Below are positions 10,510 through 43,336 of a stretch of 64,000 nt of DNA, piece after piece. Source of the DNA: Nemertoderma westbladi (Eukaryota; Animalia; Xenacoelomorpha); NCBI GenBank assembly GCA_032718475.1, contig JAUCBJ010002774.1, forward strand, positions 1 to 64,000, in the 5' to 3' direction. The translations under genes and the position numbers were made by a program. Below the pieces are notes generated by a model that made no database searches, had not been told where the DNA came from, and saw only the letters and a program-made list of their open reading frames with translations. How positions within the stretch are numbered: position 1 is the stretch's first letter; each line of letters starts with the position of its first letter.

Positions 10510-10680
10510 ATTACATTGTATGCGGTACCGATTCAGGACGAATATCTATTCTAGAATACGACGCTAAAAAGAATGTGTTTGAAAAAGTTCATCAAGAAAC
10601 TTTCGGGAAAAGTGGCTGTCGACGAATTATTCCGGGACAACATCTGGCGGTCGATCCTAAAGGGAGAGCCTTGATGCTTG
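10510..10680 (+). CDS. SF3B3: SF3B3 coding exon 2
   Basis: TTTTAG acceptor; [17 protein letters not shown]...[30 protein letters not shown]; donor TTG|GTAGGT. 171 nt, phase 1-1. Confidence 0.95.
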
Positions 10681-12620
10681 GTAGGTGGGGTAACTGGAAG
10701 GTGTGGTACATGGTAGGTGTGGTACATGGTAGGTGTGGTACCTGGTATGTGTGGTACCTGGTAGGTTTGGTACATGGTAGGTGTGGTACATGGCAGGTGT
10801 GGTACATGGTAGGTGTGGTACCTGGTATGTGTGGTACCTGGTAGGTTTGGTACTTGGTAGGTGTGGTACATGGTAGGTGTGGTACCTGGTAGGTTTGGTA
10901 CATGGTAGGTGTGGTACATGGTAGGTGTGGTACATGGTAGGTGTGGTACCTGGTAGGTTTGGTACATGGTAGGTGTGGTACATGGTAGGTGTGGTACATG
11001 GTAGGTGTGGTACATGGTAGGTGTGGTACATGGTAGGTGTGGTACATGGTAGGTGTGGTACCTGGTATGTGTGGTACCTGGTAGGTTTGGTACATGGTAG
11101 GTTTGGTACATGGCAGGTGTGGTACATGGTAGGTGTGGTACCTGGTATGTGTGGTACCTGGTAGGTTTGGTACATGGTAGGTGTGGTACATGGTAGGTGT
11201 GGTACATGGCAGGTGTGGTACCTGGTAGGTGTGGTACATGGTAGGTGTGGTACATGGTAGGTGTGGTACATGGTAGGTGTGGTACATGGTAGGTGTGGTA
11301 CATGGTAGGTGTGGTACATGGTATGTGTGGTACAGGGTAGGTGTGGTACATGGTAGGTGTGGTACATGGTAGGTGTGGTACATGGTAGGTGTGGTACATG
11401 GTAGGTGTGGTACCTGGTATGTGTGGTACCTGGTAGGTTTGGTACATGGTAGGTGTGGTACATGGTAGGTGTGGTACATGGTAGGTGTGGTACTTGGTAG
11501 GTGTGGTACCTGGTATGTGTGGTACCTAGTAGGTTTGGTACATGGTAGGTTTGGTACATGGTAGGTTTGGTACCTGGTAGGTGTGGTACATGGTAGGTGG
11601 GGTAATTGGTATGTGTGGTACATGGTAGGTGTGGTACCTGGTATGTGTGGTACCTGGTAGGTTTGGTACATGGTAGGTTTGGTACATGGCAGGTGTGGTA
11701 CATGGTAGGTGTGGTACCTGGTATGTGTGGTACCTGGTAGGTGTGGTACCTGGTATGTGTGGTACCAGGTAGGTGTGGTACCTGTAAGTGGTACCAGGTA
11801 GGTGTGGTACATGGTAGGTGTGGTACAGGGTAGGTGTGGTACATGGTAGGTGTGGTACATGGTAGGTTTGGTACATGGTAGGTGTGGTACATGGTAGGTG
11901 TGGTACCTGGTAGGTGTGGTACCTGGTAGGTGTGGTACATGGTAGGTGTGGTACCTGGTAGGTGTGGTACATGGTAGGTGTGGTACATAGTAGGTGTGGT
12001 ACATGGTAGGTGTGGTACATGGTAGGTGTGGTACCTGTAAGTGGTACCAGGTAGGTGTGGTACCTGGTAGGTGTGATACATGGTAGGTGTGGTACATGGT
12101 AGGTGTGGTACCTGGTATGTGTGGTACCAGGTAGGTGTGGTACATGGTAGGTGTGGTACATGGTAGGTGTGGTACATGGTAGGGTTGGTACATGGTAGGT
12201 GTGGTACCTGGTAGGTGTGGTACATGGTAGGTGTGGTACATGGTAGGTGTGGTACATGGTAGGTGTGGTACATGGTAGGTGTGGTACCTGGTAGGTGTGG
12301 TACCTGGTAGGTGTGGTACATGGTAGTTGTGGTACCAGGTAGGTGTGGTACAGGTACCTGGTAGGTGTGGTACATGGTAGGTGTGGTACATGGTATGTGT
12401 GGTACATGGTAGGTGTGGTACTTGGTAGGTGTGGTACATGGTAGGTGTGCTACCTGGTAGGTGTGGTACATGGTAGGTGTGGTACATGGTAGGTGTGGTA
12501 CATGGCAGGTGTGGTACCTGGTAGGTGTGGTACCTGGTAGGTGTGGTACATGGTAGGTGTGGTACATGGTAGGTGTGGTACCAGGTAGGTGTGGTACATG
12601 GTATGTGTGGTACCGGGTAG
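10672..12620 (+). repeat. 16-bp satellite (TGGTACATG|GTAGGTG)n, block 1, starting at the SF3B3 exon 2 donor
   Basis: About 120 units with variants (CCTG, CTTG, GTATGT, GTTT). The first unit overlaps the exon end TGATGCTTG|GTAGGTG. Confidence 0.95.
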
Positions 12621-12723
12621 ATGAGTGTGTAGATTTCTTAAGCCCAGTGCTGACTGACTGCTTGGCCTACTGCTTGCCTACCGCTGTTACTGCTACTGAC
12701 CACAGGCTACTTTGATTTTGCAT

Positions 12724-15700
12724 ATGGGAAGGTGTTGTGGCTGCAATTTTACGTCGGGCAAATGCAAGACATGCGTTTGCGTTCGCGCAAAACGGGCCTG
12801 CGAAAACTGCGGTCCTGGTACAGCAGGGCGGTGCGAAAATCTATTCAGGAATGGTCATTCCTGTTCGCAGCCGACATCGTCGTCAACTGCTGACAACCAG
12901 GTGGCGCCGGCGCGCATATCTTCATCGCAACCGTTGGATCTTGACGTTAGGTCTCCAGATGAAACTCTAATTGATCTAGACTCGACCCTTGTTCCCAATG
13001 GGGCTGATCAAACAGACATCACAGCGTCTGACGTTGTGGTGAGCGAGGTCGTGGGATTCACAGCGGAGTTGAATGGCGCCGCAACGTCTACTGCACCCCC
13101 GTCAGGCGCCACCACGCCTTCGACGCCCCCATCAGTTGCCGCCATGTTTACGGCGCCCGCGTCAGGCGCCGCCATGTCTACGGCGCCCGCGTCAGGCGCC
13201 GCCGTGTCTACGGCGCCCGCGTCAGGCGCCGCCATGTCTACAACGCCCCCGTCGGACGCCGCCATGTCTACGACGCCCCCGTCAAGCGCCGCCATGTCTA
13301 CGGCGCCCGCGTCAGGTGTCGCCATGTCTACGACGCCCCCGTCAAGCGCCACCATGTCTACGACGCCCGCGTCAGGTGCCGCCATGTCTACGACGCCCCC
13401 GTCAAGCGCCGCCATGTCTACGACGCCCGCGTCAGGTGCCGCCATGTCTACGACGCCCCCGTCAAGCGCCGCCATGTCTACGACGCCCCCGTCAGGCGCC
13501 GCCATGTCTACGACGCCCCCGTCAGGCGCCGTCGCCGTCATGCCTACGACTCCCCCGTCTCGCGCCGTCCCCGACCTACCAGGATATCAACCCCGCGGCC
13601 TGGCGTTTAGTTGGAACGGAATACCCGGCGAGTTATTTGAAAGTCAATTAAAGGATGCGTATGACGAGGTTGTCCACTGGAAGCCGCATCTCTTCAATAT
13701 TCCTCGTACACAGGTCGGTCGGCAATTTATTTGCTCAATTACCAAACTTTTAAAGGCCTTCAGCGAGAAATCCAATCTAGAAGGGGTTGCTTTGCTAGCA
13801 GTTATGACAGCACCTAAACTACTATTACATGCCGCAGTCAAGGAACCAGATGGACATGGTGCCTTGGGTAGTATCAGCCAAACCCTTCGGAGACGACTCG
13901 AACTTTGGAACGAGGGCGACATTGGCGCTCTCTTAGACGAAGGGAGAGCACTCCAGGCCCGGAGTGTAGGAAATGGTGCTGTTAGGGTGGACTCTGATAA
14001 ACCCAGGAGGGACTTCGTGTCTCGGATGAACACGGGACGGATTTCCGCTGCAATGGATATACTAACGGATGGTAAGGGCGGTTCGGTTATGGGATTAACG
14101 GAATTGGTTGGGAATAAAACCGTTAAGGAGATCCTAAGGGAGAAACATCCAGCGCCTGCAAGTGTCGATCCGTCACTAATCGAATCAGCATGGGGGGACA
14201 CTGTCAGTTTTCACCCGGCAATTTTCGACGCGATTAGGGGTGAGGCAATTCTGTCCGCATCCCTCCACACTCGGGGAACACCTGGTCCATCTGGCATCGA
14301 CGCCGATGGATGGAGACGCATGCTTACGGCATTTGGATCCACATCAAACGACCTGCGAAACGCGGTGGCCGCGGTTACGAGACGCCTTTGTACCGAATAC
14401 GTTGACCCCAAGAGTATTTCCCCACTCAATGCATGTCGACTGGTGCCCCTGGATAAAACACCCGGCGTCCGACCGATTGGTGTAGGAGAAGTACTGAGAA
14501 GGATAATAGGGAAGTCGATAATGACATGTACCAGGGTAGACCTGGAAGCAGTGGCCGGTAATACCCAGTTGTGCGTGGGGCAGCTTGGAGGAATCGAGCA
14601 TGCCATTCATGCTTTGCGTGACCAATACAACACCACCGAGTGCGAAGGAATCCTATCGATAGATGCAACAAACGCATTCAATGCATTGAACAGACAACTC
14701 GCGTTGTTAAACATTAAACATGTATGTCCTGCATTGTCAACAGTCCTGGTGAACACCTATCGAGAACCAACCCCACTGTTCGTGGACAAAGAGATCATGT
14801 GGTCTGAGGAGGGTACCACCCAGGGAGATCCGCTCGCCATGGCAATGTATGGCTCTGGTACACTGCCAATGGTAAAGAACCTCGTAATGATAGGCGCACA
14901 GACCGTATCAGCGGAGAACGAGGGCAAGCAGTCCATGGAAACAATGGGTGCGGTTGGAGACCCAGGGGACAGACAGGCGGACCATGACTACCCATGCGGT
15001 GGAGACCAACAAAATGCCAATCGAAGGGGTGGTTCTCTCATCCAAAAATGGTTCGCAGACGATGGGAATGTCGCCGGCGGACTCATAAGGCTAAGAGAGT
15101 ACTGGGAGAAGGTCAATGAAATCGGTCCAGGGTATGGCTACTTCCCCAACCCGGTAAAATCCTATCTGATTGTAAAGGACGAGCACAGAGAGCAGGCTGA
15201 GAAGATATTTGCAGGAACCGGCATAAAATTGACTGATGGTCACAGGGTGCTAGGATCAGTTATTGGTTCAGAGAACGCATGCAACAAATTCATATTGGAG
15301 CGTGTTGACAAACTGTGTGAGCAATTGGCGCGATTAAACGAGTTCGCAGTTACTGCTCCCCATCCAGCATATAGTTGCCTCATAAATGGTCTACAGTCAA
15401 AGTCTACTTACCTCTCCCGAACCACCCCACATTTCGTAGATAACTTGGACAACGTGGAGAAATACATAGTGGACCACCTCATACCTACACTGACCGGACG
15501 GGCCCCTCCAGGCGAAATCGAGAGGAAGTTGCTCGCTCTTCCTGTAAGGGAGGGCGGCCTTGCAATATACCAACCACAGGACCTGCGGGAGAGTTACCAT
15601 TCATCGAGGAGGATCTGTGAACCTCTCGATTCCATCGGGGTCGGAACGGCCCGACCACGCGAGGCACAGAGGCTTATTGTACGTGAAGTGGTGGGGGAAA

Positions 15701-16569
15701 GGGAGGAGTACGTGAAAGCGAAGACGGCGGATGTAAACAGACAGTTGTCAGACGACTCCAAGTACCTCCGGGCACTAACACAGGAGAAAGGTGCTTCATC
15801 GTGGCTAACAGCCTTACCAATCCTCAAGTACGGGTTCGCCCTACACAAAACAGCATTTCGGGATGCCCTGTGCTTGAGGTATGGTTGGTTGCCACCAAAG
15901 CTCCCCTCCCACTGTGTATGTGGAGTTGCATTCTCCATCTCGCATTCGCTGCACTGTCCGACAGGGGGATACCCCAGTATTCGCCATAACGAGGTACGGG
16001 ACTATTTAGCTGAGTTGCTCAACGAGGTGGCCCATGACGTGGAGAGTGAACCCGGTCTACAACAAGTAGAGAGCGAGGAATTTCGGCTGGCGAGCACCTC
16101 AAGGGACCCGGATGCGCGGCTGGATGTAGCAGCGTGCGGGGTCTGGGGCGGGAGGTTCGAGAAAGTATACGTGGACGTAAAGATATTCAACCCGCTGTGC
16201 TCCTCTAACCCCCGTTCCATTTCGTCCGCGTATCAGAAGCACGAGAGGGAGAAACGACGAAAATACGAGGAGAGGATAAATGAGATCGAGCATGGAGGTT
16301 TCTGCCCGTTCATCATGGCTACCACAGGGGGCGCTAGCAGAAGCGCGCATGCGCTCATAAATCGAATATCGCTCCTCTCAGTCAAGCGGGATTCTCCCTA
16401 TTCGCAGACCGTGTCTCTCGTGCGGACGAAGTTAAACTTTGCCCTGCTGCGGTCCGCTCTAATGTGTCTGAGGGGCGCCCGCACACCAAAGACCCGGCGG
16501 TCCACACAATCGCTGAGGGAAACCGGTATCCTCTGCGCGGTAGCCGAAGGTCTGGAGGTGCGGGCGTAG
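12724..16569 (+). CDS. CRE-like ORF: Cys-rich N-terminus, 10-aa repeat linker, reverse transcriptase, zinc knuckle, restriction-like endonuclease
   Basis: GVRPIGVGEVLRR, IDATNAFN, GTTQGDPLAM, WFADD, LPVREGGL, ASSWLTALP, CVCG...HSLHC..GG...RHN, and RLDV...YVDVK...HEREKRRKY. No stop codons. First ATG at 12724. Confidence 0.9.
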   Translation: MGRCCGCNFTSGKCKTCVCVRAKRACENCGPGTAGRCENLFRNGHSCSQPTSSSTADNQVAPARISSSQPLDLDVRSPDETLIDLDSTLVPNGADQTDITASDVVVSEVVGFTAELNGAATSTAPPSGATTPSTPPSVAAMFTAPASGAAMSTAPASGAAVSTAPASGAAMSTTPPSDAAMSTTPPSSAAMSTAPASGVAMSTTPPSSATMSTTPASGAAMSTTPPSSAAMSTTPASGAAMSTTPPSSAAMSTTPPSGAAMSTTPPSGAVAVMPTTPPSRAVPDLPGYQPRGLAFSWNGIPGELFESQLKDAYDEVVHWKPHLFNIPRTQVGRQFICSITKLLKAFSEKSNLEGVALLAVMTAPKLLLHAAVKEPDGHGALGSISQTLRRRLELWNEGDIGALLDEGRALQARSVGNGAVRVDSDKPRRDFVSRMNTGRISAAMDILTDGKGGSVMGLTELVGNKTVKEILREKHPAPASVDPSLIESAWGDTVSFHPAIFDAIRGEAILSASLHTRGTPGPSGIDADGWRRMLTAFGSTSNDLRNAVAAVTRRLCTEYVDPKSISPLNACRLVPLDKTPGVRPIGVGEVLRRIIGKSIMTCTRVDLEAVAGNTQLCVGQLGGIEHAIHALRDQYNTTECEGILSIDATNAFNALNRQLALLNIKHVCPALSTVLVNTYREPTPLFVDKEIMWSEEGTTQGDPLAMAMYGSGTLPMVKNLVMIGAQTVSAENEGKQSMETMGAVGDPGDRQADHDYPCGGDQQNANRRGGSLIQKWFADDGNVAGGLIRLREYWEKVNEIGPGYGYFPNPVKSYLIVKDEHREQAEKIFAGTGIKLTDGHRVLGSVIGSENACNKFILERVDKLCEQLARLNEFAVTAPHPAYSCLINGLQSKSTYLSRTTPHFVDNLDNVEKYIVDHLIPTLTGRAPPGEIERKLLALPVREGGLAIYQPQDLRESYHSSRRICEPLDSIGVGTARPREAQRLIVREVVGEREEYVKAKTADVNRQLSDDSKYLRALTQEKGASSWLTALPILKYGFALHKTAFRDALCLRYGWLPPKLPSHCVCGVAFSISHSLHCPTGGYPSIRHNEVRDYLAELLNEVAHDVESEPGLQQVESEEFRLASTSRDPDARLDVAACGVWGGRFEKVYVDVKIFNPLCSSNPRSISSAYQKHEREKRRKYEERINEIEHGGFCPFIMATTGGASRSAHALINRISLLSVKRDSPYSQTVSLVRTKLNFALLRSALMCLRGARTPKTRRSTQSLRETGILCAVAEGLEVRA
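13075..13560 (+). repeat. 30-bp coding minisatellite inside the CRE ORF (AMSTTPPSGA)n
   Basis: GCCATGTCTACGACGCCCCCGTCAGGCGCC units, about 15 copies, in frame. Confidence 0.9.
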
Positions 16570-16720
16570 GCGAATGTGGGACTGGCTTACTTTTTTTTTA
16601 TTGGTGGAGGGTACTACACAATTCGATGGCCTAGTAAATTTATCTATCTTATGTCCAATGTGCAGAGCAGTATTATTGATATGAAAATATAAATAAACGT
16701 ACGATGTGTAAAAAAAAAAA

Positions 16721-19295
16721 ACCGGGTAGGTTTGGTACAGGGTAGGTGTGGTACCTGGTAGGTGTGGTACATGGTAGGTGTGGTACCTGGTAGGTGTGGT
16801 ACATGATAGGTGTGGTACCTGGTAGGTGTGGTACATGTTAGGTGTGGTACATGGTAGGTGTGGTACAGGGTAGGTGTGGTACCTGGTAGGTGTGGTACAT
16901 GGTAGGTTTGGTACATGGTAGGTGTGGTACATGGTAGGTGTGGTACCTGGTAGGTTTGGTACATGGTAGGTGTGGTACAGGGTAGGTGTGGTACATGGTA
17001 GGTGTGGTACCTGGTATGTGTGGTACCTGGTAGGTGTGGTACCTGGTAGGTGTGGTACATGGTAGGTATGGTACCGGGTAGGTGTGGTACCTGGTAGGTG
17101 TGGTACATGGTAGGTGTGGTACATGGTGGTAGGTGTGGTACTTGGTAGGTGTGGTACATGGTAGGTGTGGTACATGGTAGGTGTGGTACTTAGTAGGTGT
17201 GGTACATGGTAGGTGTGGTACCTGGTATGTGTGGTACTTCGTAGGTATGGTACATGGTAGGTGTGGTACATGGTAGGTGTGGTACCTGGTATGTGTGGTA
17301 CTTCGTAGGTGTGGTACATGGTAGGTGTGGTACATGGTAGGTGTGGTACATTGTAGGTGTGGTACCTGGTAGGTGTGGTACATGATAGGTGTGGTACATG
17401 GTAGGTGTCGTACATGGTAGGTGTGGTACATGGTAGGTGTGGTACATGGTGGTAGGTGTGGTACTTGGTAGGTGTGGTACATGGTAGGTGTGGTACATGG
17501 TAGGTGTGGTACTTGGTAGGTGTGGTACATGGTAGGTGTGGTGCATGGTAGGTGTGGTACCTGGTATGTGTGGTGCATGGTAGGTGTGGTACCTGGTATG
17601 TGTGGTACTTGGTAGGTGTGGTACATGGTAGGTGTGGTACATGGTAGGTGTGGTACATTGTAGGTGTGGTACCTGGTAGGTGTGGTACATGATAGGTGTG
17701 GTACATGGTAGGTGTCGTACATGGTAGGTGTGGTACCTGGTAGGCGTGGGACCTGGTAGGTGTGGTGCATGGTAGGTGTGGTATATGGTAGGTGCGGTAC
17801 ATGGTAGGTGTGGTACATGGTAGGTGTGGTACCAGGTAGGTGTGGTACATGGTATGTGTGGTACCGGGTAGGTGTGGTACCTGGTAGGTGTGGTACCTGG
17901 TATGTGTGGTACATGGTATGTGTGGTACCGGGTAGGTGTGGTACCTGGTAGGTGTGGTACATGGTAGGTGTGGTACATGGTGGTAGGTGTGGTACTTGGT
18001 AGGTGTGGTACATGGTAGGTGTGGTACATGGTAGGTGTGGTACTTGGTAGGTGTGGTACATGGTAGGTGTGGTACCTGGTATGTGTGGTACTTCGTAGGT
18101 GTGGTACATGGTAGGTGTGGTACCTGGTATGTGTGGTACTTCGTAGGTGTGGTACATGGTAGGTGTGGTACATGGTAGGTGTGGTACATTGTAGGTGTGG
18201 TACCTGGTAGGTGTGGTACATGATAGGTGTGGTACATGGTAGGTGTCGTACATGGTAGGTGTGGTACCTGGTAGATGTGGTACCTGGTAGGTGTGGTACA
18301 TGGTAGGCGTGGGACCTGGTAGGTGTGGTGCATGGTAGGTGTAGGTGTCCTGCCTGCCAAGTACCTAACTGATCTAGACTTTGCTGATGACTTAGGAGTA
18401 CTCTCAGAATCACTAGAGGGAGCCCAACGGCTCCTCAGCTCATTAGAACATGCTGCTTCTAGTGTTGGTCTTTTTATTAACTCCAGAAAGACCAAAATTT
18501 TGACAGTTAACTTTGAAAGTCCTCAGCAAGTCTCTGATCGGATGAGCATAAGCTCAAAGGATGGTATGCTTGAGCATGTGGATGACTTCTGTTACCTGGG
18601 ATCATGGATCCGGAAAGTCAGGCGAGGACCTTCGAATACGTAAGGGAAAGGCATGGGCAGCCTTAAATAGGCTTTCCAGGATTTGGAAGTCACCGAGAAT
18701 TAATCGGAAACTTAAGGTCCGGTTATTTAGAGCAGCAGTAGTTCCAGTACTCCTCTATGGGAGTCTATGCTGGGCTCTAACTGCTGAGGACACCAAATCT
18801 CTGGATGGCACATTCACAAGAATGCTACGCCGGGTTCATTGTGCCAAGTTCAATGCACACATCTCCAACATGGTGGGGTACATGCACATGGCAGGTGTGG
18901 TACGTGTTAGATGTGGTACCTGGTAGGTGTGGTACATGGTAGGTGTGGTACTTGGTAGGTGTAGTACATGGTAGGTGTGGTACATGGTAGGTGTGGTACC
19001 TGGTAGGTGTGGTACATGGTAGGTGTGGTACATGGTAGGTGTGGTACATGGTAGGTGTGGTACATTGTAGGTGTGGTACCTGGTATATAGGTGTGGTACA
19101 TGGTTGGTGTGGTACATGGTAGGTGTGGTACTTGATAGGTGTGGTACTTGATAGGTGTGGTACTTGGTAGGTGTGGTACATAGCTGTGGTACAAAGATGT
19201 AGTACAGCTGGTAGGTGTTGTACCTTGTAGGTGTGGTATATGTAAGGTGTGGTACGTGTTGTTAGATGTGGTACCTGCCTGGTAGGTGTGATACA
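16721..19295 (+). repeat. 16-bp satellite, blocks 2-3 (interrupted by an RT fragment; degenerates after ~19100)
   Basis: Same GTAGGTGTGGTACATG unit resumes after the CRE poly(A). Confidence 0.93.
18353..18869 (+). mobile_element. Internal fragment of the RTE-like LINE, near-identical to 33960-34474(-), with one frameshift
   Basis: PAKYLTDLDFADDLGVLSESLEGAQ...YLGSWIRK / RKGKAWAALNRL...HISN. Extra A in CGGAAAGTCA (~18614). No tail and no TSD seen. Confidence 0.88.
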
Positions 19296-19599
19296 TGTTA
19301 TATGTGTTATATCAAAAGTCAGTATATATTTAATGATTTCAAGATAACTGGCAACATATAAGAAACTTAGCAAACCAATGTGCTTCAAACCGCAACAAAT
19401 TCTGTAATACACTGAAAGCAGAAGATAGGATGGAAATTCCTATGTCAAATGGGGACAATCTAGTTGGTCATTATAAAAACCGTTTCAGTCTCTTAGATTA
19501 TTGGGCCTTGGATAGGACTCTTAGATTGAATGATTTGAGAGATCTCCAATGTGTTTCAATGCAAAAAGTTTCGATGTATAAAGTGCTATACTCACACCT

Positions 19600-22611: not shown

Positions 22612-22784
22612 GCGCAGTTGAGAAACAGAAACTCGTCTACATATTGAATCGCGATAGCGAGGCGAGATTGACAATCTCCTCGCCCCTGGAGGCCCATAAA
22701 GCCAATACCATCATCTACTTTACTCTGGGGGTAGATGTTGGGTTCGACAATCCAACGTTCGCCACTCTCGAGATGGACTATGAG
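22612..22784 (+). CDS. SF3B3: SF3B3 coding exon 3
   Basis: CTGTAG acceptor; [30 protein letters not shown]...[19 protein letters not shown]; donor GAG|GTGAGT. 173 nt. Confidence 0.95.
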
Positions 22785-25299: not shown

Positions 25300-25447
25300 G
25301 AAGCTGATAACGATCCATCTGGTGACGCAGCCCAGGTCAGCCAACAGAGTCTAACTTTCTACGAGTTAGATCTCGGACTCAATCACGTAGTCAGAAAGTA
25401 CAGCGAGTTGTTGGAAGAACGGGGGAATATGTTGATAGCAGTACCAG
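25300..25447 (+). CDS. SF3B3: SF3B3 coding exon 4 (not in the ORF track)
   Basis: TTCAG acceptor; EADNDPSGDAAQVSQQSLTFYELDLGLNHVVRKYSELLEERGNMLIAVP; donor CAG|GTGAGT. 148 nt, frame consistent with exons 3 and 5. Confidence 0.95.
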
Positions 25448-31400: not shown

Positions 31401-33626
31401 TACCAGGTGAGTGAGTGTGGGAGACGGGGGAATATGTTGATAGCAATACCGGGTGAGTGAGTGTGGGAGAACGGGGGAATATGTTAGATAGCAATACCAG
31501 GTGAGTGAGTGTGGGATACGGGGGAATATGTTGGTAGCAGTACCAGGTGAGTGAGTGTGGGAGATGGGGGAATATGTTAGATAGCAGTACCGGGTGAGTG
31601 AGTGTGGGAGACGGGGGAATATGTTAGGTAGCAGTACCGGGTGAGTGAGTGTGGGAGAACGGGGGAATATGTTAGATAGCAGTACCAGGTGAGTGAGTGT
31701 GGGAGAACGGGGGAATATGTTGATAGCAGTGCCAGGTGAGTGAGTGTGGGAGAACGGGGGAATATGTTAGGTAGCAGTACCGGGTGAGTGAGTGTGGGAG
31801 AACGGGGGAATATGTTAGATAGCAGTACCAGGTGAGTGAGTGTGGGAGAACGGGGGAATATGTTGATAGCAGTGCCAGGTGAGTGAGTGTGGGAGGACGG
31901 GGGAATATGTTAGATAGCAATACCAGGTGAGTGAGTGTGGGGGACGGGGGAATATGTTGGTAGCAGTACCGGGTGAGTGAGTGTGGGAGAACGGGGGAAT
32001 ATGTTAGATAGCAATACCAGGTGAGTGAGTGTGTGAGAACGGGGGAATATGTTGATAGCAGTGCCAGGTGAGTGAGTGTGGGAGATGGGGGAATATGTTA
32101 GATAGCAGTACCGGGTGAGTGAGTGTGGGAGACGGGGGAATATGTTAGGTAGCAGTACCGGGTGAGTGAGTGTGGGAGAACGGGGGAATATGTTAGATAG
32201 CAGTACCGGGTGAGTGAGTGTGGGAGACGGGGGAATATGTTAGGTAGCAGTACCGGGTGAGTGAGTGTGGGAGAACGGGGGAATATGTTAGATAGCAGTA
32301 CCAGGTGAGTGAGTGTGGGAGAACGGGGGAATATGTTGATAGCAGTGCCAGGTGAGTGAGTGTGGGAGAACGGGGGAATATGTTAGGTAGCAGTACCGGG
32401 TGAGTGAGTGTGGGAGAACGGGGGAATATGTTAGATAGCAGTACCAGGTGAGTGAGTGTGGGAGAACGGGGGAATATGTTGATAGCAGTGCCAGGTGAGT
32501 GAGTGTGGGAGGACGGGGGAATATGTTAGATAGCAATACCAGGTGAGTGAGTGTGGGGGACGGGGGAATATGTTGGTAGCAGTACCAGGTGAGTGAGTGT
32601 GGGAGACGGGGGAATATGTTGATAGCAGTACCAGGTGAGTGAGTGTGGGAGAACGGGGGAATATGTTGGTAGCAGTACCATGTGAGTGAGTGTGGGAGAA
32701 CGGGGGAATATGTTGATAGCAGTACCAGGTGGGTGAGTGTGGGAGAACGGGGTAATATGTTGATAGCAGCACCAGGTGAGTGAGTGAGTGTGGGAGAACG
32801 GGGGAATATGTTAGATAGCAGTACCGGGTGAGTGAGTGTGGGAGAACGGGGGAATATGTTAGATAGCAGTACCAGGTGAGTGAGTGTGGGAGAACGGGGG
32901 AATATGTTGATAGCAGTACCAGGTGAGTGAGTGTGGGAGAACGGGGTAATATGTTGATAGCAGTACCAGGTGAGTGAGTGAGGGTGGGAGAACGGGGGAA
33001 TATGTTAGATAGCAGTACCGGGTGAGTGAGTGTGGGAGAACGGGGGAATATGTTAGATAGCAGTACCAGGTGAGGGAGAACGGGGGAATATGTTGATATC
33101 AGTACCAGGTGAGTGAGTGTGGGAGAACGGGGGAATATGTTAGGTAGCAGTACCGGGTGAGTGAGTGTGGGAGAACGGGGGAATATGTTAGATAGCAGTA
33201 CCAGGTGAGTGAGTGTGGGAGAACGGGTGAATATGTTGATAGCAGTACCAGGTGAGTGAGTGTGGGAGGACGGGGGAATATGTTAGATAGCAATACCAGG
33301 TGAGTGAGTGTGGGGGACGGGGGAATATGTTGGTAGCAGTACCAGGTGAGTGAGTGTGGGAGATGGGGGAATATGTTGGTAGCAGTACCAGGTGAGTGAG
33401 TGTGGGAGAACGGGGGAATATGTTGGTAGCAGTACCAGGTGAGTGAGTGTGAGAGAACGGGGGAATATGTTGATAGCAGTACCAGGTGAGTGAGTGTGGG
33501 AGACGGGGGAATATGTTGGTAGCAGTACCAGGTGAGTGAGTGAGTGTGGGAGAACGGGGGAATATGTTGGTAGCAGTACCGGGTGAGTGAGTGTGGGAGA
33601 ACGGGGGAATATGTTGGTAGCAGTAC
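25413..33626 (+). repeat. 47-bp satellite GGAGAACGGGGGAATATGTTGRTAGCAGTACCAG|GTGAGTGAGTGTG, block 1
   Basis: About 175 units of 46-52 bp. The first unit is the last ~34 nt of exon 4 plus its donor. Confidence 0.96.
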
Positions 33627-35626
33627 TACTACTACTAGGATCGGCATGCTGCATTGCAGCTGCATTTTTAAGAATGCTGTGCCGGCTTGTCAACAAAATT
33701 GCACCGCCACAACTCCCTATCACCCATGACATTTGCTAGATCATCCGCATCTTTAAGGCCAGTGTCCTTTAAGATGCGTCTCAAGAAAGTCATGGGCTGT
33801 CCACCATGCTTATTCACTCCATGAGGCTGCCAAAGTACAAGATTATGCACTGGCTGGTCCTCACGGCGAAAGCAATGTCCTGCAAAGCGGAGGCGATTTT
33901 GTTCTAGTGTCAAGCTTGGGGGAACCAATGAGACACCTCCAATGTTATATAGTGTCTGGTTGGAGATGTGTGCATTGTACTTGACACAATGTACCCGGCG
34001 TAGCATTCTTGTGAATGTGCCATCCAGAGATTTGGTGTCCTCAGCAGTTAGAGCCCAGCATGGACTCCCGTAGAGGAGTACTGGAACTACTGCTGCTCTA
34101 AATAATCGGACCTTAAGTTTCCGATTAATTCTAGGTGACTTCCAAATCCTGGAAAGCCTATTCAAGGCTGCCCATGCCTTTCCCTTACGTATTCGAAGGT
34201 CCTCACCTGACTTCCGGATCCATGATCCCAGGTAACAGAAGTCGTCCACATGCTCAAGCATACCATCCTTTGAGCTTATGCTCATCCGATCAGAGACTTG
34301 CTGAGGACTTTCAAAGTTAACTGTCAGAATTTTGGTCTTTCTGGAGTTAATAAAAAGACCAACACTAGAAGCAGCATGTTCTAATGAGCTGAGGAGCCGC
34401 TGGGCTCCCTCTAATGATTCTGAGAGTACTCCTAAGTCATCAGCAAAGTCTAGATCAGTTAGGTACTTGGCAGGATTTCCTCGACTTCTGGAGCCAGTAG
34501 GTGGAGTTATCATCACCCCATCATCATTATGATGATCTAAGGACATGCGTAGAACATAGTCAACCACAATAATGAACAAGAATGGTGCAAGTGTGTCTCC
34601 TTGGAGGACGCCCCATAACACTTCAAATGGTTCTGTGTCACCGTCAACAGTAGACACAAATGTTGTCGAACCATCGTATACTGATCTGATTGCTGCAATA
34701 ATTTCATCAGGAATCCCATATAATGAAAGTATGCTGAACATACGTGAGCGAGAGACTGAATCAAAGGCCTTGAAGAAGTCAACAAAGATAACAGCCAGAT
34801 GCCTGTCTTTCTTTTTTGATAACTCTTCAATTATCCTTCTAAGTGCCAAAATGGGCTCCATGGTCCCACGACCTTTACGGAACCCATTCTGATTTCCACG
34901 TAGCAGTCTCTCAATGGGATCTCTGATGCGATTTAATAGAATTCTATTGTATAGTTTTGCAGCAATCGAGATCAATGAGATTCCCCGAAAAGAACCATAG
35001 AGTGTTAGGTTGCCCTTCTTGGGAACTGGCACCAACTTATTTGTTTTCATTTCTTGTGGGACTCTTGTTGTACGGTACATGTCTACTATGATGGGATAGA
35101 TGAGCTTTAAACACTCAGGTATTTTAAAGACCTCAGGGGGAACACCATCTACTCCACTGGCACGATTGGTCTTAATGCTCTTTGCAGCAGCCTTCACTTC
35201 TGCAAAGGAGATATCGCCAATGGGAATATCTGGGAGTACAGACTCAGACACTTTTACTTCTATAAAGTTATCAGGCAATACCCTGTCATTATTGAGGAGC
35301 TTTTCAAAGTGGGCTTTCCAACCATTAAGGCGATCGGCTGGTGATTCAGCCTTAACCTTGGTGGTTGGTTGGCTTTTCCGCCCAGTAAGCAGATTGATCG
35401 ATTTCCATGCCTGGGATGATTGCCTGCTGTCGTCAGCATCATTGATGGCATCAACCTGTTGGTTTATTAGCTCCTGTAGATTAACAGAGTACTGCCTGTT
35501 CAGGGACCTAGATGCAGCTTTAACTGTATTCTTGGCCGCTGTAGTCTGTTTGAGTCGGGACTCTTTCTGCGCCTTATGAAGGTCATTTCGGCACTTCTGA
35601 ATTTTTTTTTGAATTTTTGGAATAAC
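33627..35626 (-). mobile_element. 5'-truncated RTE-like LINE with an uninterrupted RT frame, inserted in the 47-bp satellite
   Basis: 13-bp TSD TTGGTAGCAGTAC at 33614-33626 and 35627-35639; (TAG)n 3' tail. ORF to 33668 has FRGISLISIAAKLYNRILLNR, QNGFRKGR, FVDFFKAFDSV, GVLQGDTLAPFLF, LDFADD, FCYLGS and RLRFAGHC. No endonuclease domain present. Confidence 0.9.
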
Positions 35627-36808
35627 TTGGTAGCAGTACCAGGTGAGTGAGTGTGGGAGATGGGGGAATATGTTGGTAGCAGTACCAGGTGAGTGAGTGT
35701 GGGAGACGGGGGAATATGTTGGTAGCAGTACCAGGTGAGTGAGTGTGGGAGAACGGGGGAATATGTTGATAGCAGTACCGGGTGAGTGAGTGTGGGAGAT
35801 GGGGGAATATGTTGGTAGCAGTACCAGGTGAGTGAGTGTGGGAGAACGGGGGAATATGTTGATAGCAGTACCAGGTGAGTGAGTGTGGGAGACGGGGGAA
35901 TATGTTGGTAGCAGTACCAGATGAGTGAGTGTGGGAGATGGGGGAATATGTTGGTAGCAGTAGCAGGTGAGTGAGTGTGGGAGAACGGGGGAATATGTTG
36001 ATAGCAGTACCAGGTGAGTGAGTGTGGGAGAACGGGGGAATATGTTGATAGCAATACCGGGTGAGTGAGTGTGGGAGAACGGGGGAATATGTTGGTACCA
36101 GTACCGGGTGAGTGAGTGTGGGAGAACGGGGGAATATGTTGGTAGCAATACCGGGTGAGTGAGTGTGGGAGAACGGGGGAATATGTTGGTAGCAATACCG
36201 GGTGAGTGAGTGTGGGAGAACGGGGGAATATGTTGGTAGCAATACCGGGTGAGTGAGTGTGGGAGAACGGGGGAATATGTTGGTAGCAATACCGGGTGAG
36301 TGAGTGTGGGAGAACGTGGGAATATGTTGGTAGCAGTACCAGGTGAGTGAGTGTGGGAGACGGGGGAATATGTTAGATAGCAGTACCAGGTGAGTGAGTG
36401 TGGGAGAACGGGGGAATATGTTAGATAGCAGTACCAGGTGAGTGAGTGTGGGAGAACGTGGGAATATGTTGGTAGCAGTACCAGGTGAGTGAGTGTGGGA
36501 GAACGGAGGAATATGTTGATAGCAGTACCAGGTGAGTGAGTGTGGGAGACGGGGGAATATGTTAGATAGCAGTACCAGGTGAGTGAGTGTGGTAGAACGG
36601 AGGAATATGTTGATAGCAGTACCAGGTGAGTGAGTGTGGGAGAACGGGGGAATATGTTAGATAGCAGTACCAGGTGAGTGAGTGTGGGAGAACGGGGGAA
36701 TATGTTGGTAGCAGTACCGGGTGAGTGAGTGTGGGAGAACGGGGGAATATGTTGATAGCAGTACCGGGTGAGTGAGTGTGGGAGAACGGGGGAATATGTT
36801 GATAGCAG
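35627..36808 (+). repeat. 47-bp satellite, block 2
   Basis: About 25 further units, ending ~330 bp before the exon 5 acceptor. Confidence 0.95.
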
Positions 36809-37142
36809 CCGTAACGGGAAAAATTGAATTTACGCAATGACTATCATTTATTTAAATAGTTTGTTAACTATGTTTTATAATTTGATGTAATAATGTTCAT
36901 TATAACTGTTGTTATCGAGAAGGTAAATAAAGTGTTTTATTTACTGTAAAATATGCAATTTTATTGGTAAATTTTAAATAACCTTGGTTCCCCCCGTTAA
37001 ACAACTATGAGTTACAGAGTCAGCGATAAATTAAATTATATAATTTTCAGTCTATCTTATATTAAGTCTGTATAATTTCGCGCTGTGCCATAAGGTCAGC
37101 GGTAAATTCGGTATATTTGATCATTTTTTTTCACCGATTTAG

Positions 37143-37249
37143 GCGGAGGCGATGGTCCCAGTGGGGTTCTTATCGGAGCGGAGAACTACATCACTTACAA
37201 AAACTTTGGCGACCAGCCAGATATCCGGATGCCAATACCTAGACGGCGG
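37143..37249 (+). CDS. SF3B3: SF3B3 coding exon 5 (not in the ORF track)
   Basis: TTTAG acceptor; GGGDGPSGVLIGAENYITYKNFGDQPDIRMPIPRRR; donor CGG|GTTAGT. 107 nt. Confidence 0.95.
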
Positions 37250-37295
37250 GTTAGTTTGTAGTTAAATACCTGGACGATGGATTAGTTTGTAGTTA
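37234..37295 (+). repeat. Two-copy 31-bp tandem duplication spanning the exon 5 donor
   Basis: AATACCTAGACGGCGG|GTTAGTTTGTAGTTA followed by AATACCTGGACGATGGATTAGTTTGTAGTTA (27/31 identical). Confidence 0.9.
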
Positions 37296-37440
37296 GATTC
37301 TTATTATACAAAATAGCTTGAAAGTCTCAAAAGTTCTTTACATTAAATTTATTTACCGTATACAGTTGCGCGTGATCCTATATTTTGACCACCACAAATA
37401 AAATGACGTCATCTATTTGATTTTTTTTTCTACCGTCCAG

Positions 37441-37537
37441 AATGATTTGGATGACCCCGACAGAGGAATGCTATTCGTTTCCTCGGCAACCCATAAAACC
37501 AAAGCCATGTTCTTTCTTCTGCTGCAAACTGAGCAAG
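37441..37537 (+). CDS. SF3B3: SF3B3 coding exon 6 (not in the ORF track)
   Basis: T-rich tract then CCAG acceptor; NDLDDPDRGMLFVSSATHKTKAMFFLLLQTEQ(G); donor AAG|GTTAGT. 97 nt. Confidence 0.95.
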
Positions 37538-38327
37538 GTTAGTTACATTATTGAGCTGCAAATTCAGTCTGGATTCTAAAATGTTTGATGGTTTGAGTTT
37601 TTGTTGAATCAAAATGATTTCGCCCTTGAAATAATTTATTATATTCCTGTAACACACGGCAGAGCCGAATATTTACACGAACGAGCGAAGCGAGTTGATT
37701 CTCGCAATGTTTTTCGCGAACTCTGATTGAATATTATAATATCTTATACGTTAAGAAGAAACTACTCTGGTCATTTTATGCCAATCACAATTAAGCTAAA
37801 TTATGAAAGTGAATAACGTAATAGTTAGTTACTTTAAGCAACAAGTTCTCATTAACTGCAAGCCGTTAATAAATATGGTGAGAGCTCAAGGGAATGCATG
37901 GATCACTTCACTATAGAGTCGCGTTCATAAATCGAGAAATTTATCGTAAAAAATTAATTATTCTTTGATAATTGCTACATTTATTAATATGATATTTACA
38001 CATCCCGCGCGAGCTTATACTTTATAAATACAAAAAATACACAAATTAGGAAATTCAAATTATATATCAGGAAGAAATATTAAGCCTACTTTACATTTGA
38101 TGGCACACAATGCAGAAATCCCTAGAGGTTAATAAATTAATTGTAATTAAATTAATGAAAATTTAAATCATAACCAATAATTGTGTACAAAAACAGACTT
38201 TTCAAAACTAAGTGCTCCTTTATAGTAAAACCCATAAAACCACAGGCTTTTACCATGGAATTGTATACAAGTTTCTCCATGGCAACTGCCAACGACTGGG
38301 GGACTGGTAGCCTTGACGACCACCGCA

Positions 38328-38630
38328 TTACGATGGAGATATGAAAATGTAGTAAAGCAATGAAACTACTAGAATGCAGTAACGGTTGCTGTGAGTCTGG
38401 AGTGTGGGTGCGGCGCTGGGTTTGTTACACAACGTCGTCGCGCAACAGTTAGCCGAACAGATGTCGGCGTCGCCTCCCCCGTCGCCTAGGAACGGACCGT
38501 GTCCTTTGTTTTGTTCCACGCAACTGGTAACCAAGGAACACGGCGCTGGGGGTAGAGATGATTTCTCGCAATTCATCACGCTGACCACAGTTATCTCCCC
38601 GTTGGAGTTGCGTGAACGCATTGTTTGTTC
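38328..38630 (-). CDS. Ly6/uPAR (three-finger)-like GPI-anchored protein, last exon
   Basis: TTTCAG acceptor; EQTMRS...NCEKS...CSLVTSC...ICSANCCATTLCN (CCxxxxCN hallmark), then KPSAAP and a hydrophobic tail YCILVVSLLYYIFISPS* consistent with a GPI signal. Confidence 0.72.
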   Translation of the reverse strand, partial: EQTMRSRNSNGEITVVSVMNCEKSSLPPAPCSLVTSCVEQNKGHGPFLGDGGGDADICSANCCATTLCNKPSAAPTLQTHSNRYCILVVSLLYYIFISPS

Positions 38631-39034
38631 CTGAAATATAAATAACAATCGGTTGACCGAATGATACTAGTTATTATTTCAAATTTTATATTGATTTACT
38701 AATCTGTTTTTAAGGTCTTTTAAAAATGCCCTGAAAGACGCTATAAATTTTGATATTTTCTTTATAATTTTTCGAGCATAAAATTATAAAACAGACGTAC
38801 AAATAAATTATCGAGATTTATATTGTGCAACACCGGCGTTCTTGGTAGCAATACCCCCACACACGTGTCTGATACGTTAGTGAACAAAGTATCTTCGCAA
38901 ATCACGGGAAGGTTTTCACACTACATAATCAATAACTCCTATTTAAACCTTGTTATAACAATAACACGGTATGGTCGAAGATTTCTTGTGCCACGTGGGA
39001 GGCCCCAACAAGGTGTCCGTATGCTTAAGTCTAC

Positions 39035-42000
39035 TTACACTACTCTACACTTCATATTAACTCACTAACCACTACACTACACTTCATTTTAACTCACTAA
39101 CCACTATACTACATTTCATATTAACTCACTAACCACTACACTACACTTCATATTAACTCACTAACCACTATACTACACTTCAGATTAACTCACTAACCAC
39201 TACATTACACTTCATATTAACTCACTAACCACTACACTACACTTCATATTAACTCACTAACCACTATACTACACTTCAGATTAACTCACTAACCACTACA
39301 TTACACTTCATATTAACTCACTAACCACTACACTACACTTCATATTAACTCACTAACCACTATACTACACTTCAGATTAACTCACTAACCACTACATTAC
39401 ACTTCATATTAACTCACTAACCACTACATTACACTTCATATTAACTCACTAACCACTACACTACACTTCATATTAACTCACTAACCACTATACTACACTT
39501 CAGATTAACTCACTAACCACTACATTACACTTCATATTAACTCACTAACCACTACACTACACTTCATATTAACTCACTAACCACTATACTACACTTCAGA
39601 TTAACTCACTAACCACTACATTACACTTCATATTAACTCACTAACCACTACACTACACATCATATTAACTCACTAACCACTATACTACACTTCAGATTAA
39701 CTCACTAACCACTACATTACACTTCATATTAACTCACTAACCACTACACTACACTTCATATTAACTCACTAACCACTATACTACACTTCAGATTAACTCA
39801 CTAACCACTACATTACACTTCATATTAACTCACTAACCACTACACTACACTTCATATTAACTCACTAACCACTATACTACACTTCAGATTAACTCACTAA
39901 CCACTACATTACACTTCATATTAACTCACTAACCACTACACTACACTTCATATTAACTCACTAACCACTACACTACACTTCATATTAACTCACTAACCAC
40001 TATACTGCACTTCATATTAACTCACTAACCACTAGACTACACATTATATTAACTCACTAACCACGACACTACACTTCATATTAACTCACTAACCACTACA
40101 CTACACTTCATATTAACTCACTAACCACTACACTACACTTCATATTAACTCACTAACCATTACACTACACATCAGATTAACTCACTAACCACTACACTAC
40201 ACATCATATTAACTCACTAACCACTACACTACACTTCATATTAACTCACTAACCACTACACTACACTTCATATTAACTCACTAACCACTATACTGCACTT
40301 CATATTAACTCACTAACCACTAGACTACACATTATATTAACTCACTAACCACGACACTACACTTCATATTAACTCACTAACCAATACACTATACTTCATA
40401 TTAACTCACTAACCACTACACTGCACTTCATATTAACTCACTAACCACTACACTAGACTTCATATTAACTCACTAACCACTACACTTCAGATTAACTCAC
40501 TAACCACTGCATTACACTTCATATTAACTCACTAACCACTACACTACATTTCATATTAACTCACTAACCACTACACTAGACTTCATATTAACTCACTAAC
40601 CACTACACTACACTTCATATTAACTACTAACCACTACACTACACTTCATATTAACTCACTAACCACTACAACACTACATTTCATACTAACTCTCTAACCA
40701 CTACACTACACTTCATATTAACTCACTAACCACGACACTACACTTCATATTAACTCACTAACCAATACACTATACTTCATATTAACTCACTAACCACTAC
40801 ACTGCACTTCATATTAACTCACTAACCACTACACTAGACTTCATATTAACTCACTAACCACTACACTTCAGATTAACTCACTAACCACTGCATTACACTT
40901 CATATTAACTCACTAACCACTACACTACATTTCATATTAACTCACTAACCACTACACTAGACTTCATATTAACTCACTAACCACTACACTACACTTCATA
41001 TTAACTACTAACCACTACACTAGACTTCATATTAACTCACTAACCACTACACTACACTTCATATTAACTCACTAACCACTACACTACACTTCATATTAAC
41101 TCACTAACCACTACACTGCACTTCATATTAACTCACTAACCACTACACTACACATCATATTAACTCCCTAACCATTACACTACACATCAGATTAACTCAC
41201 GAACCACTACACCACACAACATATTAACTCACTAACCACTACACTACACTTCATATTAACTCACTAACCACTACACTACACTTCATATTAACTCACTTAC
41301 CATTACACTACACATCAGATTAACTCACTAACCACTACACTACGCATCATATTAACTCACTAACCATTACACTACACATCAGATTAATTCACTAACCACT
41401 ACACTACATATCATATTAACTCACTAACCACTACACTACACTTCATATTAACTCACTAACCACTACACTACACTTCATATTAACTCACTAACCATTACAC
41501 TACACATCAGATTAACTCACTAACCACTACACTACACATCATATTAACTCACTAACCACTACACTAGACTTCATATTAACTCACTAACCACTACACCACA
41601 CTTCATATTAACTCACTAACCGTTACACTACACATCAAATTAACTCACTAACCACTACACTACACATCATATTAACTCACTAACCACTACACTACACTTC
41701 ATATTAACTCACTAACCACTACACTACACATCAGATTAACTCACTAACCACTACAACACTACACTTCATACTAACTCTCTAACCACTACACTACACTTCA
41801 TATTAACCCAATAACCACTACACTACACTTCATATTAACTCACTAACCACTACAACACTACACTTCATATTAACTCACTAACCATTACACTACACATCAG
41901 ATTAACTCACTAACCACTACACTACACATCATATTAACTCACTAACCACTACACTACACTTCATATTAACTCACTAACCACTACACTACACGTCATATTA

Positions 42001-43236
42001 ACTCACTAACCACTATACTGCACTTCATATTAACTCACTAACCACTAGACTACACATTATATTAACTCACTAACCACTACACTACACTTCATATTAACTC
42101 ACTAACCACTACAACACTACATTTCATACTAACTCTCTAACCACTACACTACACTTCATATTAACTCACTAACCACTACACTACACTTCATATTAACTCA
42201 CTAACCACTACAACACTACACTTCATATTAACTCACTAACCACTACACTACACATTATATTAACTCACTAACCAACCACTACACTGCACGTCATATTAAC
42301 TCACTAACCACTACACTACACTTCATATTAACTCACTAACCACTACATTACACTTCATATTAACTCACTAACCACTACAACACTACACTTCATACTAACT
42401 CTCTAACCACTACACTACACTTCATATTAACCCAATAACCACTACACTACACTTCATATTAACTCACTAACCACTACAACACTACACTTCATATTAACTC
42501 ACTAACCACTACACTACACATTATATTAACTCACTAACCACTACAACACTACACTTCATACTAACTCTGTAACCACTACACTACACTTCATATTAACTCA
42601 CTAACCAACCACTACACTACACTTCATATTAACTCACTAACCAACCACTACACTACACTTCATATTAACTAACCAACCACTACACTACACTTCATATTAA
42701 CTCACTAACAAACCACTACACTACACTTCATATTAACTCACTAACCAACCACTACACTACGCGTCATATTAACTCACTAACCACTACACTACACTTCATA
42801 TTAACTCACTAACCAACCACTACACTACACGTCATATTAACTCACTAACCACTACACTACACATTATATTAACTCACTAACCACTACACTACACTTCATA
42901 TTAACTCACTAACCACTACAACACTACACTTCATATTAACTCACTAACCACTACACTACACATTATATTAACTCACTAACCACTACACTACACTTCATAT
43001 TAACTCACTAACCACTACACTTCATATTAACTCACTAACCATTACACTACACTTCATATTAACTCACTAACCAACCACTACACTACACTTCATATTAACT
43101 CACTAACCACTACACTACACATTATATTAACTCACTAACCACTAGACTACACATTATATTAACTCACTAACCACTACACTACACATTATATTAACTCACT
43201 AACCACTAGACTACACATTATATTAACTCACTAACC
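39035..43236 (-). repeat. 32-bp satellite (TTAATATGAAGTGTAGTGTAGTG|GTTAGTGAG)n starting at the donor of the Ly6-like gene
   Basis: About 130 units of CTCACTAACCACTACACTACACTTCATATTAA on the + strand. The array edge coincides with ACG|GTTAGTGAG at 43236/43235. Confidence 0.95.
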
Positions 43237-43336
43237 GTACAATGACCACAGTCGTATTTAATTTCAAGTTCGTCAACATTTATTTCTTCTATATTTTCAT
43301 CGAGGAATTTGTATGTTCCTTTGTAGCAAGTTACCC
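43236..43336 (-). CDS. Ly6/uPAR-like gene, upstream exon (5' end uncertain)
   Basis: TTTTTCAG then (G)VTCYKGTYKFLDENIEEINVDELEIKYDCGHCT, donor ACG|GTTAGT. The phase-0 end joins exon 38630 in frame, and the V-T-C-Y start is typical of LU domains. The signal-peptide exon was not identified; the in-frame MPKLRPLLVISFS is an alternative start. Confidence 0.6.

Follow-up and report, generated by a model that had tools for sequence, protein, structure and literature searches.

Tandem repeats at 5′ splice sites of SF3B3 and a nested Ly6-like gene in Nemertoderma westbladi, most likely a large and dense instance of a known repeat type

Gene models and splice sites

The window, i.e., the whole 64-kb stretch of DNA analysed here, contains six exons of SF3B3 on the plus strand and a nested Ly6-like gene on the minus strand. 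The SF3B3 exons have AG/GT ends throughout and form a single 307-codon frame without a stop: coding exon 1 (9363..9588), exon 2 (10510..10680), exon 3 (22612..22784), exon 4 (25300..25447), exon 5 (37143..37249) and exon 6 (37441..37537), with the following exon outside the window. Exons 2, 4 and 5 match residues 77–132, 191–239 and 241–275 of human SF3B3, respectively. The intron positions are old, as other eukaryotes share the donor positions.

The Ly6-like gene consists of a signal-peptide-like coding exon 1 (46469..46538), exon 2 (43236..43336) and a last coding exon (38328..38630), all on the minus strand. Its assignment to the Ly6/uPAR family is a lead only, based on Atlas matches with UPAR_LY6 at 0.86–0.87; Pfam searches with the single exons gave no match, and a homologue search with the last exon found none. 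A neighbouring gene encodes a sulfotransferase whose best match, at 31% identity, is from a brittle star. Altogether, eight donors and seven acceptors were examined in SF3B3 and the Ly6-like gene. Six of the donors belong to SF3B3 and two to the Ly6-like gene (46469 and 43236), which is one more than the seven given in a preliminary description of the locus.

Tandem repeats at exon ends

Tandem repeats start at four of the eight donors and at none of the seven acceptors. The four sites, at SF3B3 exons 2, 4 and 5 and at Ly6-like exon 2, are those named in the preliminary description. Decayed duplications were sought at the other four donors (SF3B3 exons 1, 3 and 6, Ly6-like exon 1) and at the seven acceptors, and none were found. 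As assembled, three of the four repeats extend 4–9 kb into the intron, with 130–245 units each and up to 91% of an intron occupied. These three are tandem satellites, as had been claimed for all four; the remaining one is a two-copy duplication.

The first array, A16, has a 16-bp unit and opens at the exon 2 donor G|GTAGGT (10679..19297, plus strand; ~245 copies in blocks 10679–12613, 16725–18342 and 18886–19297), making up 33% of intron 2. A47 has a 47-bp unit and covers 80% of intron 4 (25412..36808, plus strand; ~198 copies in two blocks). Its unit comprises ~36 exon bases plus the donor GTGAGTGAGT, so that the final 36 bases of exon 4 constitute the first unit, and the exact 9-base donor is kept in 124 copies. 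A31 (37234..37295, plus strand) is a single duplication of 31 bp at the end of exon 5, composed of 16 exon and 15 intron bases; its second copy reads ATTAGT and, having lost the GT, is no donor. A32, with a 32-bp unit, opens at the Ly6-like exon 2 donor G|GTTAGT (43236..39038, minus strand) and fills 91% of the intron with 130 copies. Thus, the first unit spans the exon–intron boundary in A47 and A31, and the donor is repeated within the intron in A47, A16 and A32 but not in A31. Donor repeats form the bulk of two introns. In A16 and A32, more than 100 sites each score at least as high as the real donor in a crude consensus count.

Each unit had been described as containing exon-like sequence, which holds for two of the four. 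The A47 unit matches 33 of the 35 bases that precede the final exon base and the A31 unit 12 of 15 bases, scores equalled by none of 12,903 background positions. In contrast, A16 matches at 5 of 8 bases (P = 0.14) and A32 gave no exon match (P ≥ 0.14); both begin at the donor with 1–2 exon bases in register, and in A16 these 1–2 bases per unit are the only certain ones. The described G/T richness of the sense strand was found in all four units (G+T 61–74%, C 1–11%). G content is highest in the three units that expanded (33–44%) and lowest (27%) in the one that remained at two copies (n = 4). G-quadruplexes were considered as a shared cause and ruled out by a motif search, as no array has a 3-tier motif and A32 lacks even a 2-tier motif.

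At least 14 distinct arrays are present in the window, and three of the four that exceed 1 kb start at donors. Two others (48425–49196 and 50815–55621) consist of acceptor-like units to which no exon could be assigned. Among background GT sites, 52 of 900 score as high as the donors with repeats, which gives P(≥4 of 8) = 6.6e-4; in a collapsed-seed model 0.16 of the 14 arrays are expected at donors, and P(≥4) = 6e-6, neither value being corrected for the choice of this window among many. Hence, within such a window, the data support an excess of repeats at donors over chance, in agreement with the earlier statement that random satellite birth is an unlikely cause. The contrast between donors and acceptors alone (4 of 8 vs 0 of 7) is not significant (Fisher P = 0.077).

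For an orthologous comparison, 80 metagenome loci of SF3B3 were reduced to 13 with usable introns, leaving out those that were intronless, transcript-like or duplicates. None of the 30 distinct donors at these loci carries such a repeat, in a sample of short-read contigs that is biased against long arrays.

Retroelements and repeat turnover

Retroelement insertions split A16 and A47. A non-LTR retrotransposon in A16 (12614..16724, plus strand) has a poly(A) tail, a 9-bp target-site duplication and an ORF of 1285 amino acids (12712–16569), for which a Pfam search returned no match. A fragment of a second reverse transcriptase (RT) element in A16 (18343..18885, plus strand) is identical at 503 of 516 bases to the element in A47, which lies antisense (33627..35618, minus strand) and ends in a short (TAG)n tail beside the AGTAC of the unit. 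Since the RT elements interrupt the arrays, they arrived after them.

Within the arrays, repeated multi-unit blocks were found: one of 11 units in the left block of A47, against at most 4 after shuffling, and one of 8 units in A32, against at most 6. In A32, units also differ more the farther apart they lie, to a degree reached in none of 500 permutations, and A47 contains 52 unit variants among 166 units. Neither the first block of A16 (7 vs a shuffled maximum of 8) nor the right block of A47 showed significant block structure or a distance gradient. In exon 4, the bases directly before the duplicated stretch look like the junction itself, with a score that 48 of 2144 coding 20-mers reach. 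No microhomology was found at the A31 breakpoints.

Donor usage and presence in a second sample

That the four junctions are really in use had been assumed in the preliminary description, and we checked this in assembled contigs of run X4. At exon 4, exon 5 and Ly6-like exon 2, i.e., at three of the four sites, the spliced contigs take the first donor. A 3536-base contig joins exon 3 (record positions 2863–3034), exon 4 with a single copy of its end (2712–2862), exon 5 (2607–2714) and exon 6 (2507–2606), and in an 839-base contig the last Ly6-like exon directly adjoins the true end of exon 2. Outside these two contigs, no depth on array sequence was recorded in X4. Alternative junctions were not seen in the X4 contigs, which lose rare variants, so that low-level use of downstream donors may have gone unseen. 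At exon 2, protein and frame continuity suggest that the first donor of A16 is normally used as well. In A47 and A32, splicing from a donor further downstream would run into a stop within 2–5 codons.

A31, with two copies as in the first sample, also occurs in a second sample, S2 (runs X2 and X3), together with the beginning of A47 and the distal end of A32. Summed contig depth at the A47 start relative to that at the A32 end was 0.46 in X1, 0.15 in X2 and 0.06 in X3, where depth is not equivalent to copy number. X2 has cover gaps over exons 3–4, X1 depth is low, and a record filter applies.

Relation to known repeats

The arrangement itself is already known, whereas its size and density here are unusual. 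According to the available parts of two studies, amphioxus has ‘mirage’ minisatellites in Adh3, the globin genes BflGb6 and BflGb9, troponin C and, twice, PGBD5 (PMC3087553, PMC3902484); their origin was called unclear (PMC3087553). As here, their unit lies across the exon–intron boundary and several genes per genome are affected; units of 10–160 bp, splicing reported as normal and minisatellite-like turnover are further likenesses. The amphioxus clusters have, however, 3–7 units (BflGb6 and PGBD5) vs 130–245 units and 4–9 kb here, and they are found at donors and acceptors, whereas ours are confined to donors among the sites identified.

In human, the sections available of PMC1557585 list donor-spanning VNTRs in F7 IVS7 (37 bp, 5–9 units), CBS IVS13 (15–20 units), 6-16 intron 2 (25 pseudo-sites), LMNB2 (10–15 units of 100 bp) and PDGF intron 4 (16–18 units of 81 bp). 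The identical downstream donors of F7 IVS7 are functional yet silent (PMC1557585). In these VNTRs, too, the first monomer crosses the boundary, the donor recurs within the intron and the most upstream donor is used, and the F7 unit, with 4 exon bases only, comes near A16 and A32. They differ in having about 10 times fewer units and one repeat per gene, and two pseudo-sites are also used in CBS and 6-16, whereas none was seen in our contigs. Boundary tandem repeats in human segmental duplications form new introns (PMC2812944, available part). Like those at our locus, they have minisatellite-sized units at exon–intron boundaries and lengthen introns, but they create new introns or isoforms, whereas here the introns are old and the coding sequence is unchanged. 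Contrary to the earlier statement, parallels are thus not restricted to tiny elements such as USSE. The available portions of PMC10078293 and PMC12783039 do not describe the arrangement. Within the literature covered (most subscription papers and supplements were outside its scope), neither a genome-wide test of donor bias nor an array of such size was found.

As the RNA seen uses the original donor, the locus is most likely a large, dense instance of the repeat type already described in lancelets and humans. It puts first-donor selection to an extreme test in nature: the real donor of exon 4 is followed by 124 exact copies, and the assembled transcript takes the first.

Origin and persistence of the arrays

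We consider it probable (roughly 0.6) that these donor-anchored minisatellites, or mirages, arose by DNA slippage at the exon end, grew in blocks and were tolerated as nearly neutral. Slippage at the DNA level would duplicate a short stretch at or across the exon end, at a G/T-rich donor; arrays would then expand as multi-unit blocks were copied, and persist as near-neutral intron filler. Such tolerance is made likely by the spliced contigs, which use the first donor. A duplication of the type [exon end|donor]n presumably evades purifying selection because neither the first donor nor the exon is altered, while an equivalent duplication within an exon or at an acceptor would harm the mRNA more often. 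The excess over plain intron DNA may be attributed to sequence composition: in an AT-rich genome, donors and exon ends stand out as rich in G and T and contain short internal repeats, and so would seed and expand more easily. The dead second donor of A31, the retroelements in A16 and A47 and the unit variants of A47 are signs of weak constraint. The recurring blocks of A47 and A32, the junction-like bases before the exon 4 duplication and the higher G content of the expanded units favour this reading, as does the similar behaviour of F7 IVS7 and the amphioxus mirages. Against this reading, neutral tolerance alone accounts for survival but not for the excess (expected 0.16, seen 4), A31 lacks microhomology, and the first block of A16 and the right block of A47 lack block structure.

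A considerably less probable, though possible, explanation of the excess is a transcription- or splicing-coupled process (pausing, R-loops or the repair of breaks at the 5′ splice site) that preferentially duplicates donor DNA in this lineage. It would fit the distribution over donors and acceptors, the donor starts of three of the four arrays above 1 kb, and the start of A16 and A32 at most 1–2 bases from the junction. R-loops are favoured by a G-rich, C-poor sense strand, which is the polarity of all four repeats, and all four enter the intron. However, this is a single window selected for its pattern with a donor–acceptor contrast of P = 0.077, the two arrays of acceptor-like units lie in the same window, and the C-poor strand may reflect which units expand rather than where they are born. 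Amphioxus mirages, moreover, occur at both boundary types (PMC3087553, available part). Similarly tentative is the broader proposal that 5′ splice sites are hotspots of transcription- or splicing-coupled tandem duplication, in this lineage and perhaps in many animals, and that donor arrays are a main driver of intron growth, with hundreds of decoy donors, ignored by the spliceosome, in arrays that occupy 80–90% of some introns. Were a bias towards donors to hold across the genome after correction for base composition, splicing signals would be linked to mutation and the origin of mirages would be settled.

Selection of the arrays as U1 snRNP landing pads, which would protect a long intron from premature cleavage or tune SF3B3 output via unproductive splicing, had been proposed before and appears improbable; nothing in our results points there. 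The 124 exact exon 4 donor 9-mers, the more than 100 sites per large array that equal or exceed the real donor (crude consensus count), the early stops behind later A47 and A32 donors and the role of SF3B3 itself as a splicing factor would suit this idea. Yet the arrays themselves are most of the intron to be protected (80% and 91%), A31 has no working second donor, two arrays are broken up by retroelements, none of the 30 orthologous donors in the biased metagenome sample is duplicated and the X4 contigs contain no alternative junction. Tandem 5′ splice sites of the USSE type are conserved across species and activate an upstream acceptor, leading to an unproductive isoform; this locus showed neither feature, given the same metagenome sample and X4 contigs.

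That the pattern is a coincidence in a repeat-rich genome, made more striking by the choice of one window out of ~250,000, is similarly hard to credit. The presence of at least 14 arrays in 64 kb and the two-copy state of A31 would suit it, but two within-window nulls (P = 6.6e-4 and 6e-6) argue against it, as does the recurrence of a like arrangement in unrelated animals (amphioxus, PMC3087553, PMC3902484; human, PMC1557585; available parts).

One-step RNA-templated or reverse-transcriptase reiteration of a pre-mRNA junction, both templating routes having been suggested earlier, and assembly artefacts are very improbable and for A47 and A32 largely refuted: RT elements do lie within two arrays, but they came later, the units are unspliced exon-plus-intron DNA, the recurring multi-unit blocks of variant types imply stepwise DNA copying (A47 and A32 grew by block duplication), the second sample contains A31 and parts of A47 and A32, and a misassembly would not be expected to yield variant units or a target-site duplication. 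Arrays of this kind can mislead gene prediction and read mapping.

Donor arrays in SF3B3 and a nested Ly6-like gene

SF3B3 lies on the + strand, and the window carries its first six coding exons (9363–9588, 10510–10680, 22612–22784, 25300–25447, 37143–37249 and 37441–37537), all with AG/GT ends. Exons 2, 4 and 5 align with human SF3B3 residues 77–132, 191–239 and 241–275, respectively, and the six exons join into one frame of 307 codons free of stops. Five of the six match, in order, the first propeller of RSE1/DDB1 (Pfam), and the donor positions of exons 1, 2, 3 and 5 recur in other eukaryotes. Intron 6 spans at least 26 kb; the next exon is present in sequencing run X4, outside the window. 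Within this intron lies an expressed three-exon gene, antisense to SF3B3 (exons 46538–46469, 43336–43236 and 38630–38328; span 38117–46538, − strand), whose placement in the Ly6 family is a lead only. Upstream of SF3B3, a galactose-3-O-sulfotransferase gene occupies a single frame (5517–6719, +; Pfam PF06990, E=2.4e-45); its closest protein is from a brittle star (31% identity).

Together the SF3B3 and Ly6-like genes contribute 8 donors and 7 acceptors. Tandem Repeats Finder placed a repeat at four of the donors: 16 bp for SF3B3 exon 2 (10679–19297, +), 47 bp for exon 4 (25412–36808, +), 31 bp for exon 5 (37234–37295, +) and 32 bp for Ly6-like exon 2 (43236–39038, −). All four starts given in the preliminary description were thus confirmed, with eight rather than seven donors as the total, and when each of the 15 splice sites was scanned, only these four donors proved to touch a duplication. 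Copy numbers were about 245 for the 16-bp, about 198 for the 47-bp and 130 for the 32-bp array, which take up 33%, 80% and 91% of their introns, respectively. The 31-bp repeat is a single duplication, not the satellite first described: it has just two copies, and the second has no donor (ATTAGT).

Exon-like sequence, likewise attributed to every unit, was recovered in two. In donor register, the 47-bp unit consists of the donor and some 36 bases of exon, with 33 of 35 matching; the 31-bp unit comprises 15 bases of intron and 16 of exon, with 12 of 15 matching. Neither match was equalled at any of 12,903 background positions. The 16-bp (5 of 8 match, P=0.14, not significant) and 32-bp arrays (no match) simply begin at the donor. 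The sense strand is C-poor in all four units, with G content highest in the three that expanded; G-quadruplex motifs were not common to the arrays.

Support from sequencing runs

Four runs under one species label (X1–X4, compared as assembled contigs) cover the region. X2 and X3 represent one sample, which differs from X1, the possible source of the window; X4 is labelled as probable DNA, yet contains spliced contigs. Contigs of X2/X3 cross the 31-bp duplication without gaps and include tandem pieces from the far end of the 32-bp array. In X1, X2 and X3 alike, contigs end at 25445, where the exon end turns into repeat, followed by extra depth. In a 3536-base X4 contig, introns 3 and 5 are spliced out at GT..AG and exon 4 (record 2712–2862) directly adjoins exon 5 (record 2607–2714); hence one copy of the exon end is retained and the first donor is used. 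A second X4 contig (839 bases) joins the last Ly6-like exon to exon 2 at the latter's true end. The X4 contigs show the first donor in use at three of the four sites (SF3B3 exons 4 and 5 and Ly6-like exon 2); at SF3B3 exon 2 its use is predicted from the reading frame. At the start of the 47-bp array, the spliced contig explains all the depth that X4 has in that bin; at the end of the 32-bp array, X4 depth is zero. Contigs lose rare forms, and minor use of later donors may occur.

As a separate observation, X1 allele pairs at 36915–37041 and 37687–37835 have depths near 2:1 (25.3 vs 12 and 25.7 vs 12.8) rather than 1:1, which could stem from ploidy, pooling or a paralogous copy.

Origin of the arrays

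The donor arrays are real and locally non-random. Outside array interiors there are 4586 GT sites (the arrays' own edges included); of 900 sampled, 52 touched a duplication of equal strength, which puts four of eight donors at P=6.6e-4. With the 14 arrays in 33 kb collapsed to single seeds, 0.16 would be expected at donors (P=6e-6), and the contrast of donors vs acceptors gave P=0.077. As the window was chosen for this pattern, these values express local excess, not a genome-wide one.

Most likely, slippage would first have duplicated DNA at or across the exon end; the duplication would survive, as exon definition still rests with the first donor, and would then expand into the intron in the manner of an ordinary minisatellite. 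G/T-rich donors in an AT-rich genome may seed and expand more readily, which would account for the enrichment. Survival is supported by the X4 contigs and, by analogy, by experiments on human F7, in which identical downstream donors were functional yet silent (PMC1557585). Immediately before the part of exon 4 that was duplicated, a short imperfect junction copy (its score matched or beaten by 48 of 2144 coding 20-mers) is, judged by sequence, a plausible slippage seed for the 47-bp array; the 31-bp duplication has no comparable seed. Signs of block growth include a repeated 11-unit block in the left block of the 47-bp array (52 unit types among 166 units; shuffled maximum 4) and a repeated 8-unit block in the 32-bp array (shuffled maximum 6), where unit difference also rises with distance (0 of 500 permutations). 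Neither signal appeared in the first block of the 16-bp array or the right block of the 47-bp array.

The main rival to slippage followed by expansion is a transcription-coupled hotspot, a mutational process targeted at donors, to which we give a lower but appreciable probability. Selection for U1 landing pads, as initially suggested, finds little support, for the introns to be protected consist largely of the arrays themselves, the second 31-bp copy is dead as a donor, and duplication was seen at 0 of 30 orthologous SF3B3 donors (13 of 80 metagenome loci; short contigs biased against long arrays).

The arrays most likely belong to an already known repeat type. Five human genes are described in which a minisatellite has its first monomer lying across the donor (PMC1557585), and PMC3087553 and PMC3902484 report amphioxus "mirages", minisatellites spanning exon–intron boundaries, in Adh3, globins, troponin C and PGBD5. 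These occur at donors and acceptors alike, splicing is normal, and their origin is described as unclear. Such precedents replace the earlier view that known parallels were confined to much smaller elements. The largely open-access literature searched yielded neither a genome-wide test of donor bias nor an array this large. What is unusual about the present arrays is how large and dense they are.

Retroelements and other repeats

Retroelements entered the 16- and 47-bp arrays after these had formed. An apparently full-length non-LTR retrotransposon (12614–16724, +) within the 16-bp array has an intact 1285-aa frame, a poly(A) tail and a 9-bp target-site duplication, and includes a 30-bp coding repeat (13075–13531). 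The frame had no Pfam match at E<=0.001; we take its motifs to be RT-like and restriction-like endonuclease. Two of the three pieces of another RT-element family (18343–18885, +; 33627–35618, −; 57690–57870, +; 503/516 and 153/161 bases identical) lie inside donor arrays, and one piece has a terminal (TAG)n tail adjoining the AGTAC of an array unit.

SF3B3 intron 6 also holds 28-bp and 43-bp arrays (48425–49196 and 50815–55621) with acceptor-like units (pyrimidine run plus CAG) on the − and + strands, respectively, to which no exon was assignable. A foldback-like element with inverted arms of 21-bp repeats (45270–46450) stops some 20 bases downstream of the donor of Ly6-like exon 1, and a long inverted-repeat, MITE-like element was spotted by eye in SF3B3 intron 2 (20850–21770).
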